Below, in pieces: positions 14,702-52,071 of a DNA stretch of 64,000 nt; position 1 is the stretch's first letter, and the number at the start of each line of letters is the position of its first letter. The notes beneath the pieces are model-generated. The model was not told the origin of the DNA. It ran no database searches and saw only the letters and a list, made by a program, of their open reading frames with translations. The DNA lies in assembly GCA_028877265.1 (NCBI GenBank), contig JAPPGX010000191.1:66144-130143 (forward strand), in the 5' to 3' direction. The translations under genes and the position numbers were made by a program. This DNA comes from Acidobacteriota bacterium (GTDB taxonomy: Bacteria > Acidobacteriota > Vicinamibacteria > Marinacidobacterales > Marinacidobacteraceae).

Positions 14702-14753
14702 ACGCCATGAGGCTGATCGATCGAGCGCACCTCCCGGGAGACCGGGACCGCTG

Positions 14754-15857: not shown

Positions 15858-15864
15858 GGGCGAC

Positions 15865-33067: not shown

Positions 33068-33206
33068 CGTTCTCGTCGATGCGGAGCGCTGGAGCCTGCC
33101 AGCCAGCGCTCCGCTCAAGCGCCCCCGACCCATCGGGGCGCGTATGATGGAGATTCGGCCGGCCGCGAACCTTGCGGATCGGCCTTCAGGCAAGGGAGAC
33201 GGACGG

Positions 33207-34916
33207 ATGAACAGAAAACGACTTTTTCTGACCATGGCGAGTGCGGGGTTGGGACTCGCGCTGCTGCTCGGACCGGTGCTCCATGAGCCCGCCGAAGGCG
33301 GCGGGATGAGCGTCAACGGGATGGTGGTGACTTCTCATCCGCTCGCCGCCCAGGCCGGGCTCCGGATGCTCCAGGCCGGCGGGAACGCCTTTGACGCGGC
33401 GGTGGCGAGCGCGGCCGTGAAGGCGGTCGTGGAACCCCTCATGTCCGGCCTCGGTGGCGTGGGCGGCTACGCGCTGATCCATGACGCCGAAAAGGGGGAG
33501 ATCCGGTCGGTGGACTTCATCGGTGCCGCGCCCGCAGCGGCCGAACCCGAGGCCTTCACTGCGGGCAGCCGTCTCTGGGACCGGACCCATCCCGCCCGCG
33601 ACAGCTTCCTGGCGCCGCTCGTTCCCGGAAATCTCGCTGGCTGGGCGGCGCTGCTCGAGGAATACGGCTCCATGTCCTGGGCGGAGGTCCTGGCTCCGGC
33701 GATCGAGTACGCCGAGGGTGGCTTCGCGGTGTCCCCGGCGGTTCACGGTCCATTCGGAAGCAGCGGTTTCGGCGCCGATGTCGCCCGCTATCCCTACGGC
33801 GCCAGCATCTTCTTCAAGGACGGGAAGCCTTGGCCCGTGGGCGAGGTCTTGAAGCAACCCGATCTGGCCAAGACCTTCAAGGCCATCGCCGCCGACGGGC
33901 CGGGGGCCTTTTATGGCGGGCCGATCGCGGAATCCGTCGTGAACTTCTTCCAGCAGAACGGGGGCATCCTCACCGTTGAGGACTTCGCGAACTACCGGGC
34001 GCGGTGGAGCGAGCCGCTCTCGACCACCTACCGCGGCTACACGGTGTACAGCAACCCCCCCGGCGGCTCGGGGATGACGATCCTGCAGACCCTGAACATC
34101 CTGGAGCAGTTCGACGTGCCGGCGCTCGAGCACAACTCCGAGGAGTTCGTCCATCTGGTTGCGGAAGCGATGAAGCTGGCCTTCGTGGACGAGGACACCT
34201 GGAACACCGGCAAGGACTACGCCGACATTCCGCTCGACCGGCTGCTCTCGAAGGAGTATGCGGAGCAGCAGGCGGCTCGGATCGATCTCTCCCGGGCACA
34301 GTTCCATGCGGCGGTCCGTCCCGAGAGCGACGCTCCCACCGCGGTGGAGCACACCACGCACCACACCGTGGTGGACAAGGACCACAACGTGGTGACGATC
34401 ACCCAGACGCTGATGCTCCCCGCCGGGGTGGTGGTGCCCGAGACCGGGGTCATATTCAACAACGGCATGTCCTACTTCAGCCTCGATCCGGAGAGCGTGA
34501 ACCTGATCGAAGGCGGCCAGCGCCCGCGCTTCGTGATGAGCCCGACGATCGTGACCCGCTACGACAAACCCTATTTCGCGCTCGGGTCGGCGGGCGGCTG
34601 GACGATTCCCCAGACGATCCTGCAGGTGCTGGTGCGGGCCCTCGACTACGACATGGACGCGGCGGCGGCGGTGGATGCGCCGCGTTTCGTTGTCCGCTAC
34701 CTGGCGAACTCGATTCCCTACATGGATGGGACCGACCTCGTGCTGGAGAAGGATTTCTCGGACGAGGTCCGGGAGGCGCTGAACGCCAAGGGGCACCGCC
34801 TCCGTGAGCCTCCCAACCGGATCGGGATGCTGAACGCGATCAGGATCTTCCCTGGCTCGGGAGTACTGTCCGGGGGGCCTGACAAGCGCCGCGAGGGGGC
34901 CGCGGCAGGCTGGTAG
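33207..34916 (+). CDS. ggt: Gamma-glutamyltranspeptidase
   Basis: It has a signal peptide. The N-terminal block is GGNAFDAAVASAAVKAVVEPLMSGLGGVGGYALIHD. The autoprocessing Thr context is TTHHTVVDKDHNVVTITQTL. The small-subunit block is GSAGGWTIPQTILQVL. Confidence 0.85.
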   Translation: MNRKRLFLTMASAGLGLALLLGPVLHEPAEGGGMSVNGMVVTSHPLAAQAGLRMLQAGGNAFDAAVASAAVKAVVEPLMSGLGGVGGYALIHDAEKGEIRSVDFIGAAPAAAEPEAFTAGSRLWDRTHPARDSFLAPLVPGNLAGWAALLEEYGSMSWAEVLAPAIEYAEGGFAVSPAVHGPFGSSGFGADVARYPYGASIFFKDGKPWPVGEVLKQPDLAKTFKAIAADGPGAFYGGPIAESVVNFFQQNGGILTVEDFANYRARWSEPLSTTYRGYTVYSNPPGGSGMTILQTLNILEQFDVPALEHNSEEFVHLVAEAMKLAFVDEDTWNTGKDYADIPLDRLLSKEYAEQQAARIDLSRAQFHAAVRPESDAPTAVEHTTHHTVVDKDHNVVTITQTLMLPAGVVVPETGVIFNNGMSYFSLDPESVNLIEGGQRPRFVMSPTIVTRYDKPYFALGSAGGWTIPQTILQVLVRALDYDMDAAAAVDAPRFVVRYLANSIPYMDGTDLVLEKDFSDEVREALNAKGHRLREPPNRIGMLNAIRIFPGSGVLSGGPDKRREGAAAGW

Positions 34917-35001
34917 CCGCCCGGGACCGCCGGCCTCTCTCGTTTCCGGACCCGCGTCCTCTGAAATAGACTCGGCTCATGGGGCTCGGCAGAATGTCCC
35001 G

Positions 35002-36531
35002 GTGGGCTTGAGGAATCGCGTTCTCCTGGCGGCGATCCTTCTTGGCGGGGGATTTGTGTTTCCGGCGGCGGGCGGTTGCGCCCTGCGGTCGGGAGGTTCC
35101 CCCGACCTGGCGCAGGAGGCGGCCCCCGAACTGCCCTCCGACTTTGCCGAGAATCCAGCCAGCGGAGCCCGCCAGGCGCAGGAGTGGTGGCGGGCGTTCG
35201 CCGATCCCGCGCTCGACCACGTGGTCGAATCGGTACTGGACTCCAATTTCTCCGTGGCGGAAGCGGTAGCGCGGGTCGAGCAGGCCCGAACGCGGGCCCG
35301 GCTGGCCGACGCGGCGATCCTGCCCACGGTCGGAGCGAGCCTCACCGCGGAAACCTTCGACCTGCCCACGAACGCCGCGATCGGCGCCCAACTCGAGGAC
35401 CTCGGTCTCGATTTCCCGCTGCCCGACCGGCTGGGCTTCCCGACCTATACCCTGGGCGCGGACTTTGCCTACGAAGCGGATTTCTGGGGCCGCGTCCGGC
35501 ACACCGCACTCGCGGCGGGATCCGAACTGCTGGCCTCGGAGTTCGACCTGCGGGTCGCCCGCATCGGCATCCTCGCCGAGACGATCTCGGCCTACTTCGA
35601 AATCGGCCATCTCCGGCAACAACTCGCCATCGCTCGAGGGCACGTGGAACTGCTCGAGGAACGCGAGCGGCTGGTCGAGAGCCGCTACGAACGTGGGCTT
35701 GCCGTCTCGCTCGAACTGCACGGCGTGCGTCAGGCTCTCTCGAGCGCCCGGGCCGGCGTGCCGCAGGTCGAGAATCAACTCGCCGAGACCGAGTCGCGGC
35801 TCGCCGTGCTGCTGGGAGGCTACCGGGAGGATGTCGCGGCGATCCTTCCCGAATCCCTCTCCCCGGAATCTCCAGCCGAACCGGTGCCCGCAGGCATTCC
35901 GGCCGACCTCCTTTCGCAGCGCCCGGACGTGCAGGCCGCGGGTCACCGGCTGGAAGCCGCCGGACACACCGTCGAAGCCCGTCGGGCCGCGTTGATGCCG
36001 CAGCTTTCGCTCTCCGGATCCATTGGACTCCGGAGTACGGACGCCGGAGGCCTCTTCGACGTCAAGCAGTGGTTCACGAACCTCGCCGGCAACCTCCTTC
36101 GTCCGGTGTTCGACGGCGGCCGGCTCGCGAGCGGCGTGGAACTGGCCGAGGCCCGCTTCGACGAGTTGGCGGCGGCCTACGGCCGGACCATCGTTACCGC
36201 GGTCAACGAGGTGGAAGCGGCCCTGGCCACCCTCAGGAACGAAGGCCGGCGGCAGGAATCTCTCGCCGCGCAGCACGAGGAGGCCCGCGCCTCCGTCGAA
36301 GCTCAGTCCAGGCGCTATGAGGCGGGCATCAGCGGCTATGGCGATCTGCTCGATGCGAATGCCAGACTGCTGGATGCGGAATCGGCGCTCGCGGGTTCGG
36401 CGCGGAACCTGGCGCTCGCCCGCCTCGCCATCCACCGGGCTCTGGGGGGCGCCTGGACCGCCCCGGACGAGATGGCCAGCGCGCCGGCGAGCACGCCGGA
36501 TGCCCGCGCCAAAGGACCGGCCGACCGATGA
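35002..36531 (+). CDS. RND efflux system outer membrane factor lipoprotein (NodT/OprM family)
   Basis: Lipobox FPAAGGC. It has two tandem TolC-like repeats (SVAEAVARVEQARTRARLADAAILPTV..., coiled-coil segments, LALARLAIHRALGG). Confidence 0.85.
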   Translation: MGLRNRVLLAAILLGGGFVFPAAGGCALRSGGSPDLAQEAAPELPSDFAENPASGARQAQEWWRAFADPALDHVVESVLDSNFSVAEAVARVEQARTRARLADAAILPTVGASLTAETFDLPTNAAIGAQLEDLGLDFPLPDRLGFPTYTLGADFAYEADFWGRVRHTALAAGSELLASEFDLRVARIGILAETISAYFEIGHLRQQLAIARGHVELLEERERLVESRYERGLAVSLELHGVRQALSSARAGVPQVENQLAETESRLAVLLGGYREDVAAILPESLSPESPAEPVPAGIPADLLSQRPDVQAAGHRLEAAGHTVEARRAALMPQLSLSGSIGLRSTDAGGLFDVKQWFTNLAGNLLRPVFDGGRLASGVELAEARFDELAAAYGRTIVTAVNEVEAALATLRNEGRRQESLAAQHEEARASVEAQSRRYEAGISGYGDLLDANARLLDAESALAGSARNLALARLAIHRALGGAWTAPDEMASAPASTPDARAKGPADR

Positions 36532-37745
36532 ATCGAACGAAGGGATTCATCCTGGCGGCGATCATCCTGCTGGGATCGTTCGGGATCGCAACCCTGCTGA
36601 TCGCGCAGCGGCCGGAGCCCGAGCGGCGCGAACCTCCCTCCCGGATTCCGTTCGTCGTCACGGCGCCCGCGGTCGCGGGTTCGGGGCCGATCCCGGTCCA
36701 CGGCGCCGGGACGGTCCGGCCCCGCGTCCAGGTGGAGGTGGCCGCCGGGGTGAGTGGACGGGTCGTCCGGGTTGATCCGGGCTTCGAGAGCGGCGGCCGG
36801 GTCAGCGAGGGTCAGGCGCTCTTCCGCCTCGACGACGCCGACTACCGCTTCCGGGTGGAGCAGGCCCGTTCCGGCGTCGCCGTACAGCAGGTGGAACTGC
36901 TGAAGGTCGAGGAGGAAGCGCGGATCGCCCGCGAGCAGTACGAAGCGTTCCAGAGCCGCCGTGGCGCCGCCGGGGACGCGGAAGCGAGTCCCCTGGCGCA
37001 CTGGGAGCCGCAGCTCGAGGCGGCGCGGGCCGGTGTGGAACGGGCCCGCGCGCTCCTCGCGGAAGCCGAACTCCTGCTCGCGCGAACCGAAGTTCGGGCG
37101 CCCTTCGACGCCGTGGTGCGCTCCGAGAGCGTCGGGGTCGGACAGTTCGTGACCGCAGGGGTCGGCGTCGGCCGGATTTACGCCTCCGATGCGGTCGAGA
37201 TCGTCGTCCCGCTGTCCGACGCCGATGCGGCGCTCGTCCCGGGTCTGTGGGACCTGAGGCCGGGAGTCGCGGATCGTCGGGCGGCGGCCCGGGTCACCGC
37301 GGACTACGGGACCGGCGCCTATGCCTGGGACGGGTACGTGGACCGGGTCGAGGCCGCACTGGATGAAACGACGCGCACCCTCGATGTGATCGTGCGCGTT
37401 CCGAACCCCTTCACGGGTGGTTCCCGGGTGCAAGCGGGAGAAGCGAGCGCGGACGCCGGATCCGCGCCGCCGCTCCTGATCGGCCAGTTCGCGAACGTCG
37501 AGATATCGGGGATCGCGCCGGAGGAGTACTTCCGGATCCGGCGGCTGGGGCTCCGGCCGGGCAACGAGGTCTGGGCGGTGGACGGCGAGGCGGTGACCAT
37601 CGTTCCGGTCCGCGTGCTGCAGCGCTTCGACGACACCGTCTACGTCACCGGCGGGCTGCAGGAAGGCCAGGAGGTAGTCCTGAGTGGCATTCAGTTCGCG
37701 ACCGAGGGACTGAGGGTGCGGACCGCCGCGAACCCGGACCCTTGA
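36528..37745 (+). CDS. RND efflux periplasmic adaptor (membrane fusion protein, HlyD family)
   Basis: There is a 4-bp overlap with the OMF gene. It has an N-terminal TM anchor. The biotinyl/lipoyl-like hairpin is GVSGRVVRVDPGFESGGRVSEGQALFRLDDADYR. The coiled-coil is AVQQVELLKVEEEARIAREQYEAF. Confidence 0.85.
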   Translation: MNRTKGFILAAIILLGSFGIATLLIAQRPEPERREPPSRIPFVVTAPAVAGSGPIPVHGAGTVRPRVQVEVAAGVSGRVVRVDPGFESGGRVSEGQALFRLDDADYRFRVEQARSGVAVQQVELLKVEEEARIAREQYEAFQSRRGAAGDAEASPLAHWEPQLEAARAGVERARALLAEAELLLARTEVRAPFDAVVRSESVGVGQFVTAGVGVGRIYASDAVEIVVPLSDADAALVPGLWDLRPGVADRRAAARVTADYGTGAYAWDGYVDRVEAALDETTRTLDVIVRVPNPFTGGSRVQAGEASADAGSAPPLLIGQFANVEISGIAPEEYFRIRRLGLRPGNEVWAVDGEAVTIVPVRVLQRFDDTVYVTGGLQEGQEVVLSGIQFATEGLRVRTAANPDP

Positions 37746-37854
37746 ACCTGCGGGACGTTGTAAGGCCCGGAGCGCAGGTCGATCGCCCGCAGTCGGATCC
37801 GCCGGGGTGGGGCGGAGGAGGAAGGACCTTGGGCGAGAATGCCGGTCAGGACGC

Positions 37855-38850
37855 ATGAGTGAAGACGTGCTCTCCCCGTTCCCGGAGGGTTGGTATTTCG
37901 TTACCACCCGGGGATCACTGGAGAAGGCGAGGCTCATCCAGAAGACCTGGATGGGAAAGGACATCGTCGTCTGGTGCGACGACGCCGGCGGAATCTCCGT
38001 GGCCGAGTCGGTCTGTCCTCACCTGGGGTCCGAACTGGGCCCCGCCGCCGGCGGCCGAGTGCGGGATGGCCGTCTCGTGTGTCCTTTTCACGGCTACGAG
38101 TTCGACGTCAGCGGGCAATGCGTCGCCACGCCCTTCGCCCCGCCGCCGAAGACCGCGAGGCTGAGGTCGTTCGAGACTCGGGAGGTCCTGGGCATCGTCT
38201 TCGCCTGGTGGGGAATCGACGGACGGCCCCCGCAGTGGAGCCTTCCCGAGGACCCGCCGGCCGGCGCCGACTGGTGCGAACCGGCGTTCCGGACTCTCCG
38301 GTTTCGGGGGCACCCCCAGGAAACGAGCGAGAACGCCGTGGACATGGCGCACCTCCGGTACGTGCACGGCTACGGCAACGTCGGCCGGGTCGGCAAGGTA
38401 ACGGTGGACGGCGCGTATCTGCGGAGCTGCTTTGATTTCAAGCGCACCCAGCGCATCGCCGGAGCCATCAATCTCACCTTCGACGTCTCCGCCACCGCGC
38501 ATGTCGTCGGACTCGGATACTCGCTCGTGGAGTTCCACGAGCGCTCCATTGGAATGGACGGACGCCTCTGGGTCCTTGCGACGCCCGTCGACGGCACGCT
38601 CATCGACCTGGTGCTGGTCGGACAGTTGCGAAGAATCCGGAAACCGAAGCGGCTGATCGTCGGGTTGCGGTTCCTGCCGCCTGCTCTCCGTACCGGGACC
38701 ATGAACAAGCTGATGCTGTTCTTCCAAAGGCACGACGTCATGCAGGACGTGGAGATCTGGAGCCGGAAGCGGTACCGGTCGCGCCCGAGCCTCAGCCGGG
38801 CCGACGGCGAGATCGGGTTGTACCGGCGCTACTGCAGGCAGTTCTACTAG
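37855..38850 (+). CDS. Rieske [2Fe-2S] non-heme-iron oxygenase (KshA/SdmA/PAO-like ring- or sterol-hydroxylating oxygenase family)
   Basis: ATG at 37855. Rieske motif CPHLG...(19 aa)...CPFHGY. Mononuclear iron motif ENAVDMAHLRYVHG (D-x2-H-x4-H). It is about 330 aa. It is inserted between the MFP and RND pump genes. Confidence 0.8.
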   Translation: MSEDVLSPFPEGWYFVTTRGSLEKARLIQKTWMGKDIVVWCDDAGGISVAESVCPHLGSELGPAAGGRVRDGRLVCPFHGYEFDVSGQCVATPFAPPPKTARLRSFETREVLGIVFAWWGIDGRPPQWSLPEDPPAGADWCEPAFRTLRFRGHPQETSENAVDMAHLRYVHGYGNVGRVGKVTVDGAYLRSCFDFKRTQRIAGAINLTFDVSATAHVVGLGYSLVEFHERSIGMDGRLWVLATPVDGTLIDLVLVGQLRRIRKPKRLIVGLRFLPPALRTGTMNKLMLFFQRHDVMQDVEIWSRKRYRSRPSLSRADGEIGLYRRYCRQFY

Positions 38851-38872
38851 CGCGGCCAGGCGCCCGCCTGGC

Positions 38873-40252
38873 TCAGGCGCTCCGGAACCGCCAGCCGTAC
38901 ATCACCCGGCCGTAGAAGTTGAACCACTTTCTGGCCTCCGGGTCCTCGAACGGATAGTCCGCGCCGAGCTGTCTCGCCGTGACGAGGCCGGACACGAAAC
39001 AGGTCTCCTGGCTGTTGACCAGGGTGTGCGCGCCACAGTGCCAACTCCGCCGCTTTCCCTGGACGAAGCGAAACAACTGGGTCAGGAAGGCGACGTGAGG
39101 CACGTCGTGCACGATGTGCTGAAACCACCACCTCTTGACGATCCTGCTCTCGTCGATACGGCTGATCGGGTTGTAGGTCACGAGACACGGCTTGTCCGAC
39201 GTGTTCGCCCAGGGCTGCTGGTTGTGCATGATGTAGGTGATCTCGTAGTTGTCGGGCCGCGCGCCGTACTGCTCGATGTGGTTGCTCCGGGTGGCGAGCG
39301 GCCTGGCCTCGTTGTCGGGGAGGACCGAGGCGTCCGAATGCACGACCGTGTGGTTGTGCAGTTCGCTTTCGTACCGGATCGAGGAGAGGAGCCAACCCTC
39401 CAGCCGCGTCGGCCTGTCGAGGAGCATCAGCGTCTGGTTCGCGTTGCACGCGAAGACGACTTCGTCGAAGGTTTCGGTCCTTCCGTCCTCGTCCTCCACG
39501 ACAACCTCGTTACGGCGCCGGTGGACCCTTCGCACCGGCCGGTTCAGATAGATCTTCTCGCGAAAGGCTGCGGACAGATCCCGGTAGATCCGCCGGGTGC
39601 CCTGATCCCAGGTCTGCATCGGCGTCGCGGTCTCGATGTCGAAGAAGTCCAGGTACCGCGAAAAGAGCGACGCCGGCATGTCGAACACGTTCGTCGCCAT
39701 CAGGAAGTTGACGAACATGGGCTTCAGGACCTTGTACCGGAAGTCCCCCGAGTACCTTCCCAGGTTCAGCAGCGCTCCCATGCTGACGTAGTTGAACGGG
39801 TTAAGGGAGCTGAGCAGCTTCGACCTCGAGACGTTGAGCCGGCCGAACCACTTCAGACGTCTCAGGAGACGCTGGAACTTCTGGATTTCCGGTTGCAGTT
39901 GCCTCCTGATGTCGGAGTCGAAGTCGTGGGCATAGATTCCGCCTCGATACTTCACGCTGTAGTTGAACCGCGTTTCGAGCAGCTCGATGCCGTGCTGTTG
40001 CATGAGCAGGACGAAGTGGTGGTATGCCGACGGTATGCACGCGGTGACCGAGATATCGAACGGCACCGTGCTGCCGTCGTCCTGCGGCATGTCCGCAGTG
40101 ATCGCATTGCCGCCGAGCTGCGCCTGCGCTTCGAAGAGCCGAAAATCGAAACGGTCCCGGTGGCGGTTGAGCGCCCACGCCGTCCCGAGCCCCGAGGCGC
40201 CCCCACCGACAATGGCAACCCTTCTCGGCGCGCCGCCCTTCGCTTCACCCAC
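38873..40252 (-). CDS. FAD/NAD(P)-binding amine-oxidase-like oxidoreductase (COG2907-type)
   Basis: The Rossmann motif RRVAIVGGGASGLGTAWAL is followed by FEAQAQLGGNA. The C-terminal flavin-contact block WHCGAHTLVNSQETCFVSGLVTARQLG matches the W-x-C-G-A-x-T...QE...SG pattern of the family that classically pairs with CMAS-type methyltransferases. Confidence 0.75.
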   Translation of the reverse strand: MGEAKGGAPRRVAIVGGGASGLGTAWALNRHRDRFDFRLFEAQAQLGGNAITADMPQDDGSTVPFDISVTACIPSAYHHFVLLMQQHGIELLETRFNYSVKYRGGIYAHDFDSDIRRQLQPEIQKFQRLLRRLKWFGRLNVSRSKLLSSLNPFNYVSMGALLNLGRYSGDFRYKVLKPMFVNFLMATNVFDMPASLFSRYLDFFDIETATPMQTWDQGTRRIYRDLSAAFREKIYLNRPVRRVHRRRNEVVVEDEDGRTETFDEVVFACNANQTLMLLDRPTRLEGWLLSSIRYESELHNHTVVHSDASVLPDNEARPLATRSNHIEQYGARPDNYEITYIMHNQQPWANTSDKPCLVTYNPISRIDESRIVKRWWFQHIVHDVPHVAFLTQLFRFVQGKRRSWHCGAHTLVNSQETCFVSGLVTARQLGADYPFEDPEARKWFNFYGRVMYGWRFRSA

Positions 40253-40431
40253 ATTCCTACTCTACCTTTGGGGTGCGGCCGCCCCGTCCGCTCGCCGCCG
40301 CCGCAGTAGGCGGTCCGGGGACCCTGCCGACCCCTTGCCCGCCCGCTCCATCGACTAGACTCTGACCCGGACCATCCAGTGGCGGCGGATCGGTGGGGCT
40401 GTCGAGCCGCCTCGGCTGGAGGTTGAGCACC

Positions 40432-42450
40432 ATGAGCGAGGGCACCCGGTTTCCGATCCGAATCGCCGAGGAGTTGATCCTCCTCATGCTGGACGAGCAG
40501 AGCGGCTACCTCGAGATGGTTCCGAACTGGGACTTCTCCTGTGTCATGGCCGGGGCCGTGCTCGCCGACCTGGCCCTGGAGCGTCGCATCGAGACCGACC
40601 TGGAGCGGTTGTACCTGGTCGATCCCTCACCGACCGGAGATGAGTTGCTCGACCCGACGCTCAAGGACATCGCCGAATCCGACGAAAAATCGGACGCCCA
40701 GTTCTGGATCGAACGGAACACCCGCCAAGCCGACGAAATCGTCGCAGCCGCCCTCGAGCGCCTGGTGGAGCGGAACATCCTTACCCACGAGAGCGGCGGA
40801 TTCTGGGGGCTCTCGCGCTCTGTCGCCCGTTCAGGGACTTTTCCGACCCAGGCTGTCGCGACCCGCCGGGAATCCAAGGTGAGGGTCCTGAGCGTCATCC
40901 TGAACGACGAGATCCCGGACCCGCGGGACGCCATCCTGGTCGCGCTGATGCACACCTGCGGCGGCTTCAAGCTGCTGCTGGAGGAAGAGGACTACGAAGA
41001 GCGGCTCGCCCGCATCGAACTCGTCGCCAAGCTGGACCTCATCGGACGGACGGTCGCCGCCGCCGTGAAGGACAGCACGGCGAGGCCCAAGACCCGTCGC
41101 GTCGTTCAGACGAAGCCCATTCCCAAGCCTGGGTATCTCGTACTGCTACAGCGCGACTTCCTCTCCGGCAACATCTCGAAGGCGATGTACGGCATGTATC
41201 GAAAACACGGGCCGGTCGTCAGGATGCCCTTCAAGATCCGCGGCAAGCCCGTCGTTTCGTTGATGGGTGCCGATGTCAATCACTGGGTCAATCGGCACGG
41301 ACGGTTCTATCTCCGCTCGAAGGACTACATCGAAGGGCTGGAGCACGCGTTTGGCGCATCCCGGAGTCTCCCCGGAATGGATGGCGCCGAACACTATCGA
41401 ATGCGCAGGGAACTCCAGACTGCGTATTCCCGCGCCACGCTCGCGCAGCGGCTGCCGGAGCTGATCGACGACTGCCGGAAATCGCTGAGCCGTTGGAAGG
41501 AAGGGGATGTCTTCCGCGCCACCGAGAGCTTTCAGAACCACATCAGCAGTCAGATCTCCAATTTCGCGATGGGAGTGGATTGCAGCCACTATGTCGACGA
41601 ACTGTTGGCCTTTGAACACCGTGCACTGATAACGCGGGTCCAGGGCGCATTGCCGGATTTCATGCTGTCCACCCCAAGAATGAAACGGTATGGGAAGCGT
41701 GTCAGGGAACTCCAGGAGGCGATCACCGCGGGACACACGACGGCGCTGCGCAAGGGAAAGCCCCGGGATCTGGCCGACGCGATTCTCGATCTCCACAAGA
41801 GGGACCCGCAGTTCCTTCCCGAAACGGACCTCACCTTTCCCTTCGTGGCTTCCATGGTTGCGAGCATCTATCTCGGCAGCGGACTGGCCTTCACTGTTTA
41901 CAACATGGTTCGAAACCCGGACGTGTACGCGAGGGTCCGGAGCGAGGCCGAGTCGCTGTTCGGCAACGGTCGTGAACTTGCGGGAGATGACTTCAATCAC
42001 CAGAGCATCGACGTCACGGTGCGTCTCTGCATGGAATCCTCGCGTATGTACCCGGTGATTCCATGGCAGTTGAGAACGGTCATGAACGAGTGCATCGTCA
42101 GTGGTTACGAGATACCGCCGAAGACGATGTTGCTGATTTGCCAGACTGCGCCGCACTATGCCGAGGATCTGTACCGGGATCCGTTGAAGTTCGATATCGA
42201 TCGGTACTTGCCGGACCGGGCCGAGCATCTGCAACCGGGCGCCTATGCGCCCTACGGCCTGGGTACGCACATGTGCCTCGGCCACCGGTGGGTGGAACTT
42301 CAGATGGCCGTCAACGTCCTGCTCATCGCGCATCACCTGCAGCTCGAAGTGGTGCCCGGCAACTACAAGATGGGAATCAATCCGTTCCCGACCTTGGCCC
42401 CCAACAGGAAGCTGAAGTTCCGCGTCGCCGGGGTCCCGCGTCCCGTGTGA
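40432..42450 (+). CDS. Fusion protein: N-terminal GPP34/GOLPH3-like lipid-binding domain (about 220 aa) plus C-terminal cytochrome P450
   Basis: ATG at 40432 is preceded by GGAGG (the track's 40393 start is GTG). GPP34 blocks: IAEELILLMLDEQSGYL, SCVMAGAVLADLAL, LLDPTLKDIAESDEKSDAQFWIERN, DPRDAILVALMHTCGGFKLL. P450 blocks: ExxR ESSRMYP, PERF-like FDIDRY, heme loop YGLGTHMCLG. The I-helix region (YLGSGLAFTV) lacks the usual acid-alcohol pair. Confidence 0.8.
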   Translation: MSEGTRFPIRIAEELILLMLDEQSGYLEMVPNWDFSCVMAGAVLADLALERRIETDLERLYLVDPSPTGDELLDPTLKDIAESDEKSDAQFWIERNTRQADEIVAAALERLVERNILTHESGGFWGLSRSVARSGTFPTQAVATRRESKVRVLSVILNDEIPDPRDAILVALMHTCGGFKLLLEEEDYEERLARIELVAKLDLIGRTVAAAVKDSTARPKTRRVVQTKPIPKPGYLVLLQRDFLSGNISKAMYGMYRKHGPVVRMPFKIRGKPVVSLMGADVNHWVNRHGRFYLRSKDYIEGLEHAFGASRSLPGMDGAEHYRMRRELQTAYSRATLAQRLPELIDDCRKSLSRWKEGDVFRATESFQNHISSQISNFAMGVDCSHYVDELLAFEHRALITRVQGALPDFMLSTPRMKRYGKRVRELQEAITAGHTTALRKGKPRDLADAILDLHKRDPQFLPETDLTFPFVASMVASIYLGSGLAFTVYNMVRNPDVYARVRSEAESLFGNGRELAGDDFNHQSIDVTVRLCMESSRMYPVIPWQLRTVMNECIVSGYEIPPKTMLLICQTAPHYAEDLYRDPLKFDIDRYLPDRAEHLQPGAYAPYGLGTHMCLGHRWVELQMAVNVLLIAHHLQLEVVPGNYKMGINPFPTLAPNRKLKFRVAGVPRPV

Positions 42451-42517
42451 CCGCGGGGGCGCGTAACGGCGCGGCCGACCCCGGAGTGTTTCTCAGGACT
42501 CGCTTCCACACGTATCG

Positions 42518-45500
42518 ATGAGTTCCGATCCAGGCAACCACGCGGAACCCCGTGGACCGATCGCCTACATGGCGAGCAACGGCGTGGCGTCCAACTTGCT
42601 GATGTTCGGCATCCTCGCGGTGGGCCTCGTGTCGCTGACCGGCCTCGAGCAGCAAGCGTGGCCCACGGTGCCTTTCAACCAGTTCGAGATCTCGGTGCCG
42701 TTCCCGGGCGCAACGCCCCAAGAGGTGGAGGAGGCCATCGTCGTCAAGATCGAGGATGAGGTCAGGGGATTGGCGGAGGTGAAGACGGTCCGGTCCGTAG
42801 CGGCCCCGGGAATGGCGTCCGTCAGGGTCGAAGTCAACTCCGGTACGGACATGGGCGCGAAGAGGGACGAAATCGAGTCGGCGGTCGCGCGGATTCAGAC
42901 CTTCCCGGGTGGGGCCGAGCGGCCCCAGATCCGTGAAATGACGAACGCCCAGAGCATGATGCGTCTCGTCCTCTACGGCGACGTTCCAGAGCGCTCGCTG
43001 AAGGAGCTCGCCCACCGGATCGAAGACGATCTCGCGTCGCTCCCGAACGTGTCCCTGGTCGAGACCAGCGGGGTGCGCAACTACGAGATCTCGATCGAAG
43101 TGCCGCTCGAGCGGCTGCGGGCCCTTGGGCTCACGCTGACCGACATCGCCAACACGGTTCGCCGCGGTTCCCTGGACCTGTCGGCGGGCAGCATCGATAC
43201 CGCGCAATCCCGGGTGCGGATTCGGACCCTCGGCCAGAGCTACGACCAGCAGGACTTCGAGGACATCGTCGTCCTCGGCCGCGCCGACGGCACGGTGGTG
43301 CGCCTGGGTGAGATTGCCGAGGTGCGCGACGGCTTCCACGACTCAGGTTTGCTGGTGCGGTACCAGGGCGAGCCAGCCGTGTTCGTCGAGGTTTCGCGAG
43401 CCGATGGCGAGAGGGTGATGGACGTGGCGCGCGCCGTTCGGGAACACGTCGCGAACGAGATAGCGCCCTCGCTCCCGGACGGCATGGGCATCGACATCTG
43501 GAACGACGACTCTTCGGTCTTCTCGGAACGTGCCCTCCTTCTCCTCAAGAATGGAGCCTTGGGGCTGTTGCTGGTCCTGATCGCGCTGGGTCTGTTTCTC
43601 CAGCTTCGGCTGGCGTTCTGGGTCGCCGTCGGCCTCGGCGTTTCCGCGATCGGCGCCCTGGCCGCCATGATGGTGTTCGACATCCCGCTCCACGAGATTT
43701 CGCTCTTCGCCTTCGTGCTCGCCATCGGCATCGTCGTGGACGATGCGATCGTCGTGTCGGAGCACATCCACGAGGAACGAAAGCGCGGCACGCCGGGACT
43801 CGCGGCGGCGATCCGGGGCGCGCGACGCATCAAGGTGCCGCTGGTCTTCGCGGTGCTGACGACCATCGTGGCGTTCCTTCCGCTGCTCTTCATACCCGCG
43901 GGGTTCGGAGAGGTGTGGAAGGCACTGCCGATCGTCGCTATTGCCACGCTGCTCTTTTCGCTGGTCGAATCGCTCCTGGTGCTGCCCAATCATCTGTCCC
44001 ATCATCTGCACGGCCCGGATTGGGCGCCCCGGACGGGCATGGAGCGGTTCGTCGCCCGGATCCAGAATCGGGTCGATTCCTGGTTGAACCGCTTCATCCA
44101 GGGACCCGTGGACCGCGGGATCCAGTTGGCGACGGACTGGCCCGGGGTGACGGTTTCGGCGGCCGTTGCGCTGCTCGTCCTGAGCATTTCCCTTCTTCCG
44201 GCCGGCATCGTTCCCACCACCTTCGCGACGAAGGTCGAAGGCGACTTCGCGATCGCCACCCTTGAGATGCCGGAAGGAACGACCGCGCCGCAAACGTACG
44301 CCGTGGCGCAACACCTGGAATCGGCCGGCCGCCGGGCCGTCGAGCGGCTCTCCCAAAGCCGGCCCGCTGACGCGCCTCCCCTCTTGTCCGGAGTTACGGT
44401 CGTCGTCGGCCAGCGGTCGCGGCTCGAAACCGGAGGCCTCAATCCCTCGCCCACTTTGAACCCGGAAGCCAATGTCGCGACCATCGAGTTCAAGCTCCTG
44501 AGCGCCCAGCTGCGGAGCATCACTTCGGGAGACGTCGTGCAGGCATGGCGCGAGGAGGTGGGTGTCCTGCCTCAGGTACGCGCGGTCACCTTCATCAGCG
44601 AGATCTACACATTGGGCAACCCCGTCGAGGCGGCGCTGTCCCACCCGGATCCGGAACGCCTCAACGAGATCGCGAATTCCACCGTCGCCGGCCTCGGCAG
44701 GGTCGGAGGCGTCTTCGACATACGCTCGGATCACACTCCCGGGATCCCGGAAGTCCAGGTGGGACTACTTCCCGAAGCGCGCACCCTGGGCCTCACGCTG
44801 GATGATCTTGCCCGGCAGACGCGAGCGGCCTTCTTCGGTGAGGAGGCCGTGCGGGTGCAGCGGGGACGTGACGAAGTTCGGGTCTACGTCCGGTTACCCG
44901 AGGAGCAACGGAACGCGATCACCGACGTCGAGAGTTACCGGCTCCGGACGCCAACTGGCGCCGACGTGCCGGTCAGCCGCGTGGCTTCGCTGAGTTCGGG
45001 CACCTCGCCGCCGGCCATCCGGCGCCAGGACGGCCAGCGGATTGTGACCGTTACCGCGGATGTCGATCCGAGTGTGACTTCCGCCGCGACCGCCAACGAC
45101 ATTCTGGAGAACACCATCCTGGCGGGGCTCATCGCGGAGAACCCGGAACTGACCTATACCTTCGGAGGGGAACAGCAACAACAGCTCGACTCCCTGGGCG
45201 GTCTCTATCGCGGATTCGTGATCGCGCTGCTCCTGATCTTCGCGCTGCTGGCCATTCCCCTGCGCTCCTACACGAAACCGTTCATTGTCATGGCCATCAT
45301 CCCGTTCGGGTTCGTCGGGGTGATCCTGGGTCACTGGATGCTGGGGGTCGCCGTGAGCGCGGAGTCCTTCGTCGGGATCTTCGGGTTGGCCGGCGTGGTC
45401 GTCAACGACTCCCTGGTGATGATCGATTTCACCGACCAGAAGCTCCGGGACGGCATCCCGGTGCGAACCGCGATCATCGAGGGCGCGAAGGGACGCTTCC

Positions 45501-45721
45501 GCCCGATCATGCTGACTTCCCTGACGACCTTCCTGGGTTTCACCCCCCTGATTCTCGAGGACGCGATTCAGGCGCAGTTCTTTGTTCCCTTCTCCGCCTC
45601 GATCGGTTGCGGCATTCTCTTCACCACGGTGATCATCATGTTTCTGGTGCCCGCGCTTTCCTCGATCCACCTGCGCCTTGGCTCGGCCCGGCAACAACTG
45701 GCCGCCGAGGGTTCCGGTTGA
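42518..45721 (+). CDS. RND efflux transporter permease (AcrB/HAE1-like, 12 TM, about 1067 aa)
   Basis: It has an N-terminal TM followed by the large periplasmic loop (PFPGATPQEVEEAIVVKIEDEVRGLAEVKTVRS). Conserved TM4-like block: AFVLAIGIVVDDAIVVSEHI. Its second half is a repeat of the first. Confidence 0.9.
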   Translation: MSSDPGNHAEPRGPIAYMASNGVASNLLMFGILAVGLVSLTGLEQQAWPTVPFNQFEISVPFPGATPQEVEEAIVVKIEDEVRGLAEVKTVRSVAAPGMASVRVEVNSGTDMGAKRDEIESAVARIQTFPGGAERPQIREMTNAQSMMRLVLYGDVPERSLKELAHRIEDDLASLPNVSLVETSGVRNYEISIEVPLERLRALGLTLTDIANTVRRGSLDLSAGSIDTAQSRVRIRTLGQSYDQQDFEDIVVLGRADGTVVRLGEIAEVRDGFHDSGLLVRYQGEPAVFVEVSRADGERVMDVARAVREHVANEIAPSLPDGMGIDIWNDDSSVFSERALLLLKNGALGLLLVLIALGLFLQLRLAFWVAVGLGVSAIGALAAMMVFDIPLHEISLFAFVLAIGIVVDDAIVVSEHIHEERKRGTPGLAAAIRGARRIKVPLVFAVLTTIVAFLPLLFIPAGFGEVWKALPIVAIATLLFSLVESLLVLPNHLSHHLHGPDWAPRTGMERFVARIQNRVDSWLNRFIQGPVDRGIQLATDWPGVTVSAAVALLVLSISLLPAGIVPTTFATKVEGDFAIATLEMPEGTTAPQTYAVAQHLESAGRRAVERLSQSRPADAPPLLSGVTVVVGQRSRLETGGLNPSPTLNPEANVATIEFKLLSAQLRSITSGDVVQAWREEVGVLPQVRAVTFISEIYTLGNPVEAALSHPDPERLNEIANSTVAGLGRVGGVFDIRSDHTPGIPEVQVGLLPEARTLGLTLDDLARQTRAAFFGEEAVRVQRGRDEVRVYVRLPEEQRNAITDVESYRLRTPTGADVPVSRVASLSSGTSPPAIRRQDGQRIVTVTADVDPSVTSAATANDILENTILAGLIAENPELTYTFGGEQQQQLDSLGGLYRGFVIALLLIFALLAIPLRSYTKPFIVMAIIPFGFVGVILGHWMLGVAVSAESFVGIFGLAGVVVNDSLVMIDFTDQKLRDGIPVRTAIIEGAKGRFRPIMLTSLTTFLGFTPLILEDAIQAQFFVPFSASIGCGILFTTVIIMFLVPALSSIHLRLGSARQQLAAEGSG

Positions 45722-45758
45722 CGGGGCGGGCGGACGAAGAGCCCGTCGGGGCGCCGGG

Positions 45759-46814
45759 CTAGCCCGAAAGGGGCCGGCGCGCCACGAAACAGTAGAGCGG
45801 GGTGAAGATCCCCGTCTTGCCCCCCGCGACGTAAGCGTCCGCGGTCCGGTCCAGGAGAGCCACCACCTCCGCCGAGCCCCTCGGGAACGCACCGAAGAAC
45901 TCGGCCAGCCGGACTCCCCACCGCAGCGCCTTGCGGCCCATCGGAATCCGGCGGAACGCGCTGCCGGGCAACCCGCGGAGGGTTTCCATGGGCTGATACC
46001 ACGGCGTGTCCTGACGGTGCCCGTCGGCGGCGAGGTCCTCACCCTCCAGGACTTCGAATCCTGCGGTTGCGAGCGCCCGGTTGACCTCCCCGAACGTCGC
46101 AATGTCCTTGAGCGCGATGCCGTGCATGAGCTCCTGCTTGATGGCGCGGTGCCGGTCGTCCCCCGGGTCGTACAGGTCCGTCATGCACATTTCCTGGCCC
46201 CAGAAGAGGGCTCCAGGTTTCAGCACTCGGTAGATCTCGGCGAACGCGCCCGCCTTGTCGTCCGCGTGGCAGGTTGATTCGATCGCGTAGCCGCGGTCGA
46301 AGGTCCGGTCCGCGATCGCGCTCATGTCCATGAAGCTGCACTGGAGACAGTCGGTCTGGCCGGCGAGCCCCGCGGCCTCGTTCAAGCGCCTTGCGTTGTT
46401 GCACTGGACTTCGCTGGCGTTGATTCCGACAACGCGGACTCCAACCTCCCTCGCCACGCGGCGCATCGGACCGCCGATCCCGCATCCGACATCCACGACG
46501 GTCATGCCCGGACGCAGTTCGAGCCTGGACATCATGAGTCTCTGGTGCCGGATCTTGGAGTCCTCCAGGCTTTCGCCGGGCGACAGCGGCGCAAAGTGCA
46601 GGGACTCTCCCCAACCCATGACCATGAACTCGGTGCAAAGGTCGTAGTACTCCTTGACGGTCCGCGTGTGGTCGTACCCCCCGTCGGCATCCCCCCGGGG
46701 GGATGCCCTGTCGGTCCATCCTTCGAAGTCCCGCACGCGGTTCGTGACGTTTGATCCGCCGAACGCAGTTCTCAACCCATCGGATAGCCCACGGATTTGT
46801 CCGGTGAACTTCAC
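45759..46814 (-). CDS. Sterol 24-C-methyltransferase (Erg6/SMT) homolog, SAM-dependent
   Basis: GTG start at 46814. It shows block-by-block similarity to yeast Erg6 as recalled from memory. [21 protein letters not shown] matches [37 protein letters not shown] matches [25 protein letters not shown] matches [21 protein letters not shown] matches [28 protein letters not shown] matches [27 protein letters not shown] matches [32 protein letters not shown] matches LVAGGKSKLFTPMMLFVARKP. Confidence 0.8.
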   Translation of the reverse strand: [351 protein letters not shown]

Positions 46815-47144
46815 GGCGTGTTCTGGCCCGGTTCCGGCTCTCGCAGGCCACCCGGACGTGCGAAACCGGTTCTTCGCACCGGGGGCCGTTGAAGACGGGG
46901 CCCCGCGGGTCGCGGTTCCGCCAGCGGTCGCGGGGACGCACGGCGGATAGCCGCCACGTCAGCCGGCACCCGGACTTCCCTCCCCCCCAAGACAGTGGAT
47001 AGTCTAGTGGAGGCGTTGCGGACCCCGGGAGCACGCCGAAGGAGATGGACGGATGCGCAGGAAACGCCAACTCTCGCTGTTTCCGGCCGTATCCGGGGTG
47101 CTCTCTGGACGCCCGGACCACCGCCGCGAAGGAGCCGCTGCCGG

Positions 47145-51222: not shown

Positions 51223-52011
51223 TTAACCGGGCTCTTCGACGAGGGACAACGTCAGCTCCGCGAACGGCTCCTCCCGCACACTCGCGGGCAGTTCCTGAAT
51301 GAGGCCGATCGGTTCATGGGGTGTGACATCGGCGTTCCGGGCGGTGAACGTCGCCCCGCTGTCGGTCCCCGAGTCGTAGCCGATCAGCTCCACCCCGATT
51401 CGTTCCATCCAGCATCCACCGGCTTCCATCAGGGGCATCCCGCTCACCCCGACGAACCAGTCGGGGCTGGGTGCGATCATCGAGACCAGAGTCATCAGCG
51501 GGTGTTCTGCCGTCGCCTCGAAGATCAGCCCGACCGATCCCGGCGACGGGAAGGAGGCCTCCGAGCCTCTCACGCAGGTGGTGCTCCCACCGCGATCCGC
51601 CTCCGCGTCGATTTCCCGGCAGAGCGAGGACACGCTGCCGGTCTCAGCCATGTTCTCGATGCCCGGAGTGGCAATGCCGCCGGAACTCCAGAACGAAACC
51701 TCCGGCGCGTGGGCTGCCCCGGCCACGCGGGAAAAGTGCGCTCCCGACGGGAAGGGCGGCTGGTTGCCGTGCGAGGACGCATTCCAGACGGCCCGGAACG
51801 TCACCGCGTAGGTCGCTGAATCCGGGCACTCGGGTTCGGGTTCCGGCATCGGCGTCGGAGCCGGCGAAGGCGGAGCCGGGGGCGCAGGCGCCGGGGGAGG
51901 CGTCGGCGCCGGCGTGGAAGGTGCATCGGACCCGCACGCCAGCGCGAACAGAGCGAGGACGAGACAGGCGAACGCGCCAAGGCGGGAAGTGCGCGTGACT
52001 GACGGGAGCAT
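51223..52011 (-). CDS. Spondin_N (reeler-like) domain lipoprotein with Pro-rich linker
   Basis: Lipobox LFALACGSD, then a PAPTPPPAPAPPAPPSPAPTP linker. The spondin_N-like core is CPDSATYAVTFRAVWNASSHG ... FPSGAHFSRVAGAAH ... PDWFVGVSG. Confidence 0.6.
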   Translation of the reverse strand: MLPSVTRTSRLGAFACLVLALFALACGSDAPSTPAPTPPPAPAPPAPPSPAPTPMPEPEPECPDSATYAVTFRAVWNASSHGNQPPFPSGAHFSRVAGAAHAPEVSFWSSGGIATPGIENMAETGSVSSLCREIDAEADRGGSTTCVRGSEASFPSPGSVGLIFEATAEHPLMTLVSMIAPSPDWFVGVSGMPLMEAGGCWMERIGVELIGYDSGTDSGATFTARNADVTPHEPIGLIQELPASVREEPFAELTLSLVEEPG

Positions 52012-52071
52012 CCCCCGCCACGGTAGCGCAGCGCCCGACGGATTCACCGAGCAGCCCCGTCCGCGCGCCGG

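Follow-up and report, generated by a model that had tools for sequence, protein, structure and literature searches.

A sponge-symbiont gene module joining a divergent sterol-methyltransferase homologue and a GPP34-P450 fusion to RND-superfamily transporters: a candidate system for tailoring and exporting sterol-like lipids

Why should a set of lipid-tailoring genes lie between the genes of a tripartite efflux pump? The question is raised by a 64,000-nucleotide stretch (hereafter the window) of contig JAPPGX010000191.1 from an Acidobacteriota bacterium, in which a 12.2-kb block, delimited here as positions 34911-47093, encodes the three components of a resistance-nodulation-division (RND) pump together with a homologue of sterol methyltransferases (SMTs), a Rieske oxygenase, a flavin adenine dinucleotide (FAD)-dependent oxidoreductase and a cytochrome P450 fused to a GPP34 domain. 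An earlier interpretation made from this DNA alone, to which we refer as the sequence-only reading, had put the locus forward as a module for the modification and export of sterols or triterpenoids. The interpretation we favour, with moderate confidence, is that these genes belong to a horizontally spread module of symbionts of sponges and, in one case, of a coral, which tailors a sterol or sterol-like polycyclic lipid and exports it through a dedicated RND-superfamily transporter. The seven genes of the block are, in order of position:

35002-36531, plus strand: outer-membrane factor (OMF) of the tripartite pump, a NodT/OprM-type lipoprotein (Pfam OEP, 151 bits; TIGR01845, 284.6 bits against a cut-off of 210)
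36528-37745, plus strand: membrane fusion protein (MFP), the RND periplasmic adaptor (TIGR01730, 152 bits against a cut-off of 94.9; HlyD_3 also matched)
37807-38850, plus strand: KshA-like Rieske non-haem-iron oxygenase (Pfam Rieske and KshA_C, the latter with 87 bits against a cut-off of 23.3)
38873-40252, minus strand: FAD-dependent oxidoreductase of the amine-oxidase fold, an accessory member (Pfam Amino_oxidase / NAD_binding_8)
40393-42450, plus strand: GPP34-P450 fusion with the published GPP34_L architecture (GPP34, 117 bits, and p450, 124 bits, in a single open reading frame)
42518-45721, plus strand: RND inner-membrane permease, HAE1-like, of an uncharacterised clade (ACR_tran, 512 bits)
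45759-46814, minus strand: SMT-family methyltransferase dependent on S-adenosylmethionine (SAM), of a divergent clade (CMAS/Methyltransf_11, and Sterol_MT_C with 59 bits against a cut-off of 21.7)

All seven open reading frames (ORFs) show coding-type codon bias (0.81-0.87 GC at third codon positions), and the four enzymes, which lack signal peptides and transmembrane segments, are predicted to be cytoplasmic. None of the seven proteins reaches an NCBIfam equivalog cut-off, so no function can be assigned by name. The layout described in the sequence-only reading is largely borne out by the coordinates: the OMF and MFP genes overlap by 4 bp, and the pump gene, placed there about 4.8 kb downstream of the MFP gene with three genes between, starts 4.77 kb past the MFP stop codon. 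The FAD gene, which had been called divergently transcribed, is so with respect to the P450 gene only; towards the Rieske gene it is convergent. The SMT and pump genes converge across a gap of 37 bp.

To what extent is this grouping shared with other genomes? The seven window proteins were compared by tblastn with 56 related loci, taken from contigs encoding SMT relatives and from a scan of one genome per GTDB species for GPP34-P450 relatives. Counts out of 30 refer throughout to those species-level genomes in which 8 kb or more lies on either side of the GPP34-P450 gene; they span Acidobacteriota, Gammaproteobacteria and Rhodothermales, members being scored within 10 kb of that gene. An orthologous RND pump was found in 27 of the 30 (58-97% identity), MFP orthologues in 29 (50-98%), OMF orthologues in 20 (36-97%), the SMT in 23 (59-84%), the Rieske enzyme in 21, and the FAD enzyme, absent within this range in Gammaproteobacteria and Rhodothermales, in nine; a single genome lacked all three scored markers (transporter, SMT and Rieske enzyme). 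The identity of the P450 to that of the window is 69% in Bryobacterales/Terriglobia, 60-68% in two groups of Gammaproteobacteria, 55% in Rhodothermales and 44% in Gemmatimonadota and Alphaproteobacteria. The SMT-centred contigs extend the range to Gemmatimonadota, Alphaproteobacteria and Dadabacteria, and in all seven SMT-centred loci an RND-superfamily gene lies directly beside the SMT gene: the orthologous permease in five and an MMPL protein in the remaining two, which represent a single alphaproteobacterial locus in nearly identical copies. The module is thus found in symbionts of at least six bacterial phyla. Its carriers include the closed Vicinamibacteria chromosomes OY821641.1, OZ220713.1 and OZ219815.1.

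In the window's own lineage the whole block is syntenic, and between Vicinamibacteria, Bryobacterales, Gammaproteobacteria, Rhodothermales, Gemmatimonadota and Alphaproteobacteria gene order and orientation vary. Because the same families are kept in shuffled orders, it is the set that is retained and not an operon, and the grouping is no accidental insertion. The OMF, MFP and RND genes, which share one locus and are non-contiguous in the window, are contiguous in three other loci (L032, L033 and L056 of our set), and the genes that intervene in the window stay beside the pump across phyla. The picture of a pump operon split by gene insertion, drawn in the sequence-only reading, accordingly gives way to one in which the split is one permutation. 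We give next to no credence to a fortuitous arrangement, with tailoring genes inserted into an ordinary acrAB-tolC-type operon and no functional coupling; the interruption of the pump genes in the window and a GC content of 0.63-0.66 at 38-46 kb, slightly below the 0.68-0.70 of the OMF-MFP region, would suit it, and the co-localization of RND, MFP, SMT, Rieske and GPP34-P450 genes in 20-29 of the 30 genomes, in many orders, contradicts it.

A variant of the module from Dadabacteria shows which of its parts may be exchanged:

4477-15863 of locus L058 (ENA ERZ26693581): MMPL transporter, TP_0789/LolA-like protein, 360-residue protein without Pfam match, SMT, ERG4/ERG24 reductase, GPP34-P450 fusion and FAD enzyme

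The MMPL protein of this variant has a sterol-sensing-domain match, Region I of its SMT reads EFCERGWGQSIHF, and its FAD enzyme, SMT and P450 are 81%, 43% and 41% identical to those of the window. Immediately past the module come beta-oxidation genes (thiolase, ECH, 3HCDH and ACAD). A third SMT subclade (P0126), sister to the window's clade in a neighbour-joining tree, also directly adjoins a GPP34-P450 gene; since three SMT subclades are each adjacent to such a gene, the invariant core of the module consists of the SMT and the GPP34-P450 fusion. To this core an RND-superfamily transporter is almost invariably added, with the Rieske, FAD and ERG4/24 enzymes as accessory members. All-against-all clustering of the neighbouring ORFs yielded no further family common across taxa, and no ferredoxin, reductase, regulator, or oxidosqualene cyclase (OSC) or other sterol-synthesis gene as a conserved member. 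One extra ORF family from this clustering was rejected as a truncated RND gene at contig ends, and the upstream gamma-glutamyltranspeptidase (GGT) gene was rejected as a module member, its copies near the module in other phyla being only 31-36% identical.

Is the methyltransferase at the core of this module a sterol methyltransferase? Its identity with yeast Erg6 is 37% over 332 aligned residues, at full length (E = 3e-72), which falls within the 35-42% reported for bacterial SMTs proven active (Brown et al., Supplementary Data 1), and a search of representative proteins gave 44% identity with rice cycloartenol-C24-methyltransferase. Sterol_MT_C (PF08498) is matched at residues 286-348, with G333, L341, G352, F357 and P359 kept. 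These similarities place the enzyme in the SMT family and not with the tocopherol, ubiquinone or cyclopropane-fatty-acid methyltransferases. The Region II motif DxGxGxxGP is present, D125, G127, G129, G132 and P133 being invariant in all 157 members of the enzyme's clade, and of the 25 residues that all demonstrably active SMTs share (Brown & Welander 2025, preprint) 24 are retained, including the essential H90, D125, G129, P133 and E195; the exception is F89, here leucine. A search of the PDB gave no true SMT structure, the best matches being generic methyltransferases. Bacterial homologues of SMTs, which the sequence-only reading had thought rare, number 7,966 in IMG (Brown et al. 2023, PMC10070321) and are common in sponge microbiomes, and this subfamily alone comprises more than 120 clusters at 90% identity.

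The substrate pocket sets the clade apart. In a search space of 1.84 billion representative proteins it forms a tight family of at least 52% identity, beyond which scores fall from 370 to 271 bits to other SMTs; the nearest named SMTs outside it are those of sponge symbionts (Dadabacteria and the acidimicrobiian 'Ca. Poriferisocius') and the rice enzyme. Leucine stands at position 89 in 156 of the 157 members, and each residue of the signature M81/L89/A218/L219/Q223/M225/I249 occurs in 147-156 of them. In about 100 other representative SMT clusters Region I reads YE[Y/F/W]GWGxSFHF and is accompanied by Y223 and W225, whereas the window SMT, with its Region I at nucleotides 46593-46631, carries M81, M83, Q223 and M225 in place of the aromatic Y/F81, Y/F/W83, Y223 and W225. 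In a docking model (Brown & Welander 2025) the side chain of the sterol is bordered by positions 81 and 249, and mutants of Erg6 have shown that positions 81, 218, 219 and 223 control the number of methylations. Since F89 is reported to be conserved in all active SMTs, no member of the L89 clade would be expected among the enzymes proven on desmosterol or 24-methylenecholesterol, and the clade would be either untried or among the SMTs found inactive, which number 11 in the work of Brown et al. The Erg6-like methyltransferase convergent to the pump in the sequence-only reading is therefore retained as to family and position and given up as to type, the canonical pocket residues, F89 included, having been replaced. 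We could recognize no STRM-like C-4 methyltransferase among the SMT representatives with an odd Region I, which bear only the generic name 'sterol 24-C-methyltransferase' or none; enzymes of the STRM type are SMT-family proteins that methylate elsewhere, at C-4 of 3-ketosteroids (PMC9136925).

What does the second core protein contribute? As the sequence-only reading had it, the P450 and a GPP34/GOLPH3-like domain are fused in one ORF. The 685-residue product, whose probable start is Met14 (nucleotide 40432, from an ENA gene call), carries the GPP34 domain at residues 24-226 and the cytochrome P450 at residues 243-664. The best PDB matches of the latter are CYP46A1 cholesterol 24-hydroxylase (77-78 bits), CYP170A1, several CYP51 sterol 14-demethylases and CYP24A1, a similarity that is weak and leans consistently towards sterols. 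Its haem cysteine ligand and ExxR motif are intact. The I-helix (nucleotides 41857-41898, residues 489-502) reads VASIYLGSGLAFTV and aligns with AGHETS of CYP46A1; its core, ASIYLG in place of AGxET, is conserved in all relatives and suggests a non-standard P450 chemistry or substrate-assisted oxygen activation. Two paralogous GPP34-P450 genes, whose products are 82% and 73% identical to that of the window, lie with a FAD gene between them in a metagenome-assembled genome (MAG) of the GTDB group Bin61 (L019, 10001-15654), and locus L024 has a second copy, 44% identical, 7 kb away. In Rhodothermales Bin80 (L041, L051 and L053, about 12.2-20.2 kb) genes of haem-biosynthesis type, namely a PPOX-like Amino_oxidase (173 bits), a uroporphyrinogen decarboxylase and a glutamyl-tRNA reductase, follow directly downstream of the GPP34-P450 gene, which may reflect lineage synteny or a link to haem supply.

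The GPP34 domain can be aligned with human GOLPH3, whose contacts with phosphatidylinositol 4-phosphate (PI4P) we take from the GOLPH3/Vps74 literature to be W81, R90, R171 and R174. In all 52 relatives the tryptophan is kept and R90 is replaced by A, R171 by D/E and R174 by V/I; with three of the four contact residues lost, the basic PI4P pocket appears to be no longer present. This bears on the published account of the protein, in which GPP34 is a secreted PI4P-binding effector acting against phagocytosis (PMC11706023). Were GPP34-P450 such an effector, blocking phagosome maturation in sponge cells, its neighbours would be unrelated to it. Fusions of GPP34 and P450 are exclusive to sponge symbionts and transcribed in hospite, in Aplysina aerophoba, and eukaryotic GPP34/GOLPH3 does bind PI4P (Microbiome 2025, PMC11706023); set against this are the replaced contact residues, the missing signal peptide, the need of a P450 for haem and cytoplasmic electron donors, and the same lipid enzymes and pump flanking the gene across phyla, a neighbourhood that the published study did not examine, since it analysed flanking genes only for short GPP34 proteins of Actinobacteriota and never mentions sterols, methyltransferases or efflux. 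We consider the effector account very improbable for this gene.

The two accessory enzymes of the window add to the question of the substrate. In the Rieske enzyme, the CPH-x17-CPFH cluster at residue 70 and the ENAVDMAHLRYVH iron motif at residue 175 are intact, and the true start may lie 16 codons downstream, to judge from a 331-residue ENA gene call. Its best PDB matches are 3-ketosteroid 9-alpha-hydroxylases (KshA; 77-89 bits), whereas the SdmA equivalog NF052579 gives 37.1 bits against a cut-off of 600, over the Rieske domain only; of the SdmA/KshA class proposed in the sequence-only reading, the KshA half holds and SdmA orthology does not. Rare domain fusions of GPP34 with Rieske have been reported, with no mention of Rieske as a neighbouring gene (PMC11706023), and may be read as a Rosetta-stone link between the two functions. 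The FAD enzyme has a GGGASG motif at residue 16, and its PDB relatives are LkcE, the best at 98 bits, and, weakly (29 bits), the fatty-acid double-bond isomerase 2b9w of P. acnes. Its identity with homologues is 77-94% in Acidobacteriota, Gemmatimonadota and Alphaproteobacteria, besides the Dadabacteria enzyme already mentioned. Between phyla it is the most conserved member of the module (77-84% identity), with neighbours at only 41-74% (L005, L006 and L058).

Could the substrate be something other than a sterol? An SMT-clade enzyme recruited to a different olefin, in a hopanoid, another triterpenoid, a carotenoid-like polyene or an unsaturated acyl chain, would be in keeping with the changes at the side-chain-contact residues 81 and 249 and at other Region I/IV residues, with a FAD enzyme that has no PDB relatives beyond the polyketide amine oxidase LkcE and a fatty-acid double-bond isomerase, with a P450 whose second-best PDB match is the sesquiterpene P450 CYP170A1 and whose best NCBIfam matches, far below cut-off, are terpene oxygenases, and with a lineage that lacks the sterol cluster discussed below. 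It accords poorly with an SMT similarity that runs over the full length, takes in the sterol-specific domain at the C-terminus and extends to 24 of the 25 conserved residues, with the ERG4/ERG24 reductase and sterol-sensing-domain MMPL of the Dadabacteria variant, with KshA and CYP46A1/CYP51 as nearest solved relatives, and with the lack of hopanoid (hpn, shc) or carotenoid genes in any of 60 loci. Substrates of the SMT family are known only as sterols. We judge a non-sterol lipid distinctly unlikely, and a sterol substrate is favoured by the SMT family and its Sterol_MT_C domain, the retained catalytic residues, the ERG4/ERG24 reductase of Dadabacteria and the relatives of the P450 and KshA-like enzymes.

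Does the pump expel the product of these enzymes or something toxic? The OMF begins with a lipoprotein-type signal ending in GGC, the MFP has an N-terminal membrane anchor, and the permease matches ACR_tran over residues 23-1047 (1,025 residues). The permease lies below all curated subfamily and equivalog cut-offs (NF033617, the best model, 396 against 1250; TIGR00915, 291 against 940; CusA/CzcA, 252 against 701), and its best PDB match scores 237 bits; it can therefore be assigned to no characterised clade of drug or metal pumps. Lipid transporter models fare no better, HpnN giving at most 108 bits against a cut-off of 752 and BstA at most 24 against 1400, and we found no homologues of BstA, BstB or BstC, the window pump having no BstA match and the alphaproteobacterial MMPL scoring 23.9 bits against 1400. 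This MMPL, a protein of 775 residues in the neighbourhood otherwise held by the pump, has HAE3 and the hopanoid transporter HpnN as its best models, both below cut-off. A transported lipid is favoured by this replacement of the tripartite pump by an HAE3/HpnN-like transporter in Alphaproteobacteria and Dadabacteria. The presence of ERG4/ERG24 and the swap between efflux-type and HpnN-type pumps are the strongest contextual arguments, and point to a sterol-like membrane lipid that is moved from the inner membrane.

The same pump invites a reading as a detoxification module, in which the enzymes tag membrane-active sterols, terpenoids or saponin-like compounds of the sponge or its microbes and the pump expels them, with no role for the host. 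In favour of this reading, hydrophobic toxicants are classically expelled by tripartite HAE1-type RND pumps, and it is generic multidrug pumps that the window pump resembles most. The module is carried by lineages that have no cluster for sterol synthesis and is confined to host-associated bacteria of sterol- and terpenoid-rich tissue, and no biosynthetic 'early' genes lie nearby in the scanned window and related-locus ORFs. Methylation of the SMT type, however, is a biosynthetic tailoring of carbon and not a known detoxification reaction; the Dadabacteria variant includes a biosynthetic SMT partner, the ERG4/ERG24 reductase; an HpnN-like lipid-trafficking transporter, not a drug pump, serves in Alphaproteobacteria and Dadabacteria; no TetR or other efflux-type regulator is conserved with the module; and its Rhodothermales carriers also make sterols of their own. 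On balance we hold detoxification to be unlikely, with a real chance left to it.

Where would a sterol come from? The window SMT is identical to a protein on the 63-kb ENA metagenome scaffold ROBB21-1_SAMN13943213, and the nearest genomes, whose P450 fusions are 91-98% identical, are MAGs that bear the label Acidobacteria or Vicinamibacteria bacterium; several were obtained from Ircinia sponges and are classed as GTDB 'Bin61' in Kelly et al. 2022. We accordingly place the source of the window among the uncultured Vicinamibacteria of this Bin61 group. All 49 genome loci found with a GPP34-P450 protein belong to MAGs of sponge projects, one of them from the coral Porites lutea, and from the sample label and these sponge-derived relatives we infer that the window's own sample was sponge-derived as well. 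Clusters of OSC, CYP51 and ERG24 genes (CSGs) were reported in 115 of 537 Ircinia MAGs, and Table S1 of the same study lists all five Bin61 Acidobacteriota MAGs, at 87-91% completeness, as 'CSG present: No' (Kelly et al. 2022, PMC9531527). Four of these five CSG-negative MAGs carry the module in our locus set, and two module-carrying Rhodothermales MAGs are listed as CSG 'Yes', with cluster and module on different contigs. The sequence-only reading had noted that the window holds no OSC or squalene epoxidase, and a Pfam scan covering nearly all coding-type window ORFs of at least 100 residues likewise returned no OSC, squalene epoxidase, squalene-hopene cyclase or CYP51. Because the related Bin61 MAGs lack the OSC-CYP51-ERG24 cluster, the substrate in the window's lineage is probably derived from the host or community.

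These observations can be assembled into a working model. It builds on what is shown, namely the genes and their domains, the intact catalytic motifs, the pocket changes specific to the SMT clade, the loss of the PI4P arginines and the conserved co-localization across phyla; that the substrate is a sterol, in which order the enzymes act, and which way and to what place the product is moved are what we infer. A sterol, in the Acidobacteriota lineage probably from the host or the microbial community and in Rhodothermales and similar carriers perhaps self-made, would partition into the inner membrane, where the four cytoplasmic enzymes would act on it. The GPP34 domain would bind lipid or dock the fused P450 to the membrane, the solved structures closest to this P450 being those of P450s of the sterol side chain and nucleus; the SMT-clade enzyme, with a pocket unlike that of all SMTs proven on desmosterol or 24-methylenecholesterol, would methylate an olefin of the substrate with SAM as donor; the KshA-like Rieske enzyme would hydroxylate or desaturate it; and the FAD enzyme, where present, might desaturate, isomerise or reduce a carbon-carbon bond. 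Finally, the RND-MFP-OMF pump would pick up the product in the membrane and bring it to the outer membrane or out of the cell, a step presumably left to the HpnN-like MMPL in Alphaproteobacteria and Dadabacteria. The modification-and-export module of the sequence-only reading thus remains the best explanation after the checks on enzyme family, synteny and pump clade that it had itself set and that it withstands, shorn of its split operon, its canonical Erg6-type enzyme and the supposed rarity of SMTs.

Several points weigh against this interpretation. Sterol activity of the SMT clade is not assured, with L89 for F89 and without the aromatic Y/F81, Y223 and W225. The clade is monophyletic in only 24 of 40 bootstrap replicates of a simple neighbour-joining tree, and its signature residues together with the score gap are stronger evidence for its distinctness. 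The P450, Rieske and FAD enzymes resemble characterised enzymes only distantly (77-98 bits), and such matches do not settle what the substrate is. With the acid-alcohol pair of its I-helix missing, the P450 may be something other than an ordinary monooxygenase, and the clustering of neighbouring ORFs shows that redox partners are not encoded in the module. An entry of 'no CSG' means that a three-gene cluster is absent from MAGs that are 87-91% complete and is no proof of the absence of an OSC. Since RND pumps are classic detoxification devices, export of a product and removal of an unwanted compound are, moreover, indistinguishable.

How did the module come to be shared? Cross-phylum identities of 58-65% for the RND permease, 59-63% for the SMT and 77-84% for the FAD enzyme, far above those of unrelated RND pumps or methyltransferases, are consistent with horizontal transfer. 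Within the lineage the block is a mosaic. Against an Ircinia MAG (jk18x22bins.33, L012), the nucleotide identity of window positions 34901-46900 is 97-98% in OMF-MFP-Rieske-FAD, 93-96% in the P450 and 86-91% in RND and SMT, with a break near 42400, and the convergent RND-SMT pair seems to have been exchanged by recombination as a unit of its own. In the sister MAGs L031 and L013, compared with window positions 33195-47093, the 12.2-kb block lies upstream, not downstream, of the GGT gene, and an esterase gene (46995-48851) is missing; a TonB-dependent-receptor-like gene (30119-33067) is missing from most relatives. In a Vicinamibacteraceae MAG (L017, 4640-7347) the OMF-MFP pair, 60% identical, is inverted between the FAD and P450 genes; there the genes for adaptor and channel seem to have been exchanged for others and the RND-SMT-P450 part kept (84-87% identity). 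Fragments of DDE_3/DDE_Tnp_1_4 transposases and a ParE/RHH toxin-antitoxin pair flank the SMT and RND genes in a Bryobacterales MAG and an Aplysina aerophoba metagenome (L003 and L004), flanks that are consistent with mobility of the module. Around the 12-kb block of the window, a search for flanking repeats gave only short, low-identity matches of chance type and no evidence of a transposon or integron boundary.

The remaining genes of the window have unrelated functions: SecA, IMPDH, TonB-dependent receptors, ABC-2 permeases, glycosidases, amidohydrolases, the GGT, a major facilitator superfamily transporter and a proline racemase. Three proteins contain eukaryote-like domains of types typical for sponge symbionts: a Sortilin/Vps10-BNR protein (9573-12791, plus strand), a protein with DUF5107 and tetratricopeptide repeats (26040-28982, minus strand) and a Spondin_N protein (51223-52047, minus strand); a Spond_N gene also adjoins the module in locus L008. 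A scan of 34.7-47.1 kb returned no promoters and six terminator-like sites against 6.9 expected by chance, a result that is uninformative in a high-GC organism.

What would such a module mean for the sponge? Two hitherto unconnected observations on sponge microbiomes, bacterial SMTs, which complicate the use of steranes as the oldest animal biomarkers, and the GPP34-P450 fusion, a hallmark of sponge symbiosis, meet here in one conserved module. The module supplies a testable hypothesis for the fusion, namely tailoring of sterol-type lipids and not hijacking of PI4P, it identifies an SMT clade with a rebuilt substrate pocket outside the enzymes proven active so far, and it suggests that symbionts without a sterol pathway of their own modify and export host sterols. 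If confirmed, it would bear on the question of who makes the unusual sterols of sponges and on lipid exchange in one of the oldest animal-microbe symbioses, and would widen the substrates of tripartite RND pumps to include lipids exported by a dedicated system. A bolder proposal, which we regard as a long shot, is that part of the unconventional sterol chemistry of demosponges is the work of the symbionts rather than the sponge and is done on host-supplied sterol, the product being pumped back as a membrane lipid or signal. The remodelled SMT would then alkylate a position or olefin left untouched by canonical SMTs, alongside the atypical GPP34-P450 and Rieske enzymes, for instance a Δ25 side chain to give 26-methyl sterols of the aplysterol or 26-methylstigmastane type; further alkylation or cyclopropanation would be other possibilities. 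Were this true, 'sponge biomarker' sterols would be a joint product of host and symbiont, and the symbiosis-specific GPP34-P450 would acquire a concrete biochemical role.

How does the module compare with systems already known? Each of its parts is of a known kind, and bacterial SMTs of sponge symbionts and GPP34_L have both been described. In full-text literature, with most subscription journals outside coverage, we found no paper linking GPP34 to sponge sterols and none linking sponge-symbiont SMTs to P450 and efflux genes; within the searchable literature, the module that joins SMT and GPP34_L to a Rieske oxygenase and a tripartite RND pump appears to be undescribed, and the same holds for the distinctness of the SMT clade and for the missing PI4P pocket. 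Among the closest counterparts of the module are the sterol clusters of sponge symbionts, whose SMTs, obtained from metagenomes, are active and lie with OSC, CYP51, ERG24 and SdmAB genes and no transporter (PMC10070321). Both systems belong to uncultured symbionts of the same phyla, include an ERG6-family enzyme with Sterol_MT_C, show apparent horizontal transfer and bear on the debate over the maker of side-chain-alkylated 'sponge' sterols. The sterol clusters, however, serve de novo synthesis with OSC, squalene epoxidase, CYP51, ERG24 and SdmA/SdmB, none of which is found in the module, whereas the module has an SMT of a separate clade with an altered pocket, a GPP34-P450 fusion and an RND-superfamily transporter. 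The fusion itself has exactly the architecture of GPP34_L (PMC11706023), with relatives that are all from sponge or coral MAGs, and differs from the protein as published in that its PI4P arginines are gone and its gene stands within a lipid-tailoring and pump module.

Steroid-hormone synthesis in animals relies on a triad of a Rieske cholesterol 7-desaturase (Neverland/DAF-36), P450s (DAF-9 and the Halloween genes) and the SMT-family C-4 methyltransferase STRM-1. The resemblance lies in three enzyme classes acting on exogenous sterol in sterol auxotrophs, STRM being an SMT-family enzyme with an altered pocket (PMC9136925); the animal enzymes differ in being eukaryotic proteins of the endoplasmic reticulum and mitochondria with no pump, and the likeness is one of functional analogy only. 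Actinobacterial steroid catabolism (KshAB, CYP125/CYP142 and KstD) likewise applies a KshA-type Rieske enzyme and a sterol-type P450 to host sterol, but the module is without KshB, KstD, hsa, fadD/fadE and mce uptake genes, and its methyltransferase and exporter are not in keeping with catabolism. Comparable in logic are HpnN, for hopanoids, and BstA of BstABC, for sterols, where a lipid-tailoring set is likewise combined with an RND-superfamily transporter that moves the product from the inner membrane. In the alphaproteobacterial and Dadabacteria modules the transporter is an HAE3/HpnN-like MMPL. The pump of the window, by contrast, is of the HAE1 type with three components, and its outer-membrane channel implies that the product is expelled across the entire envelope.

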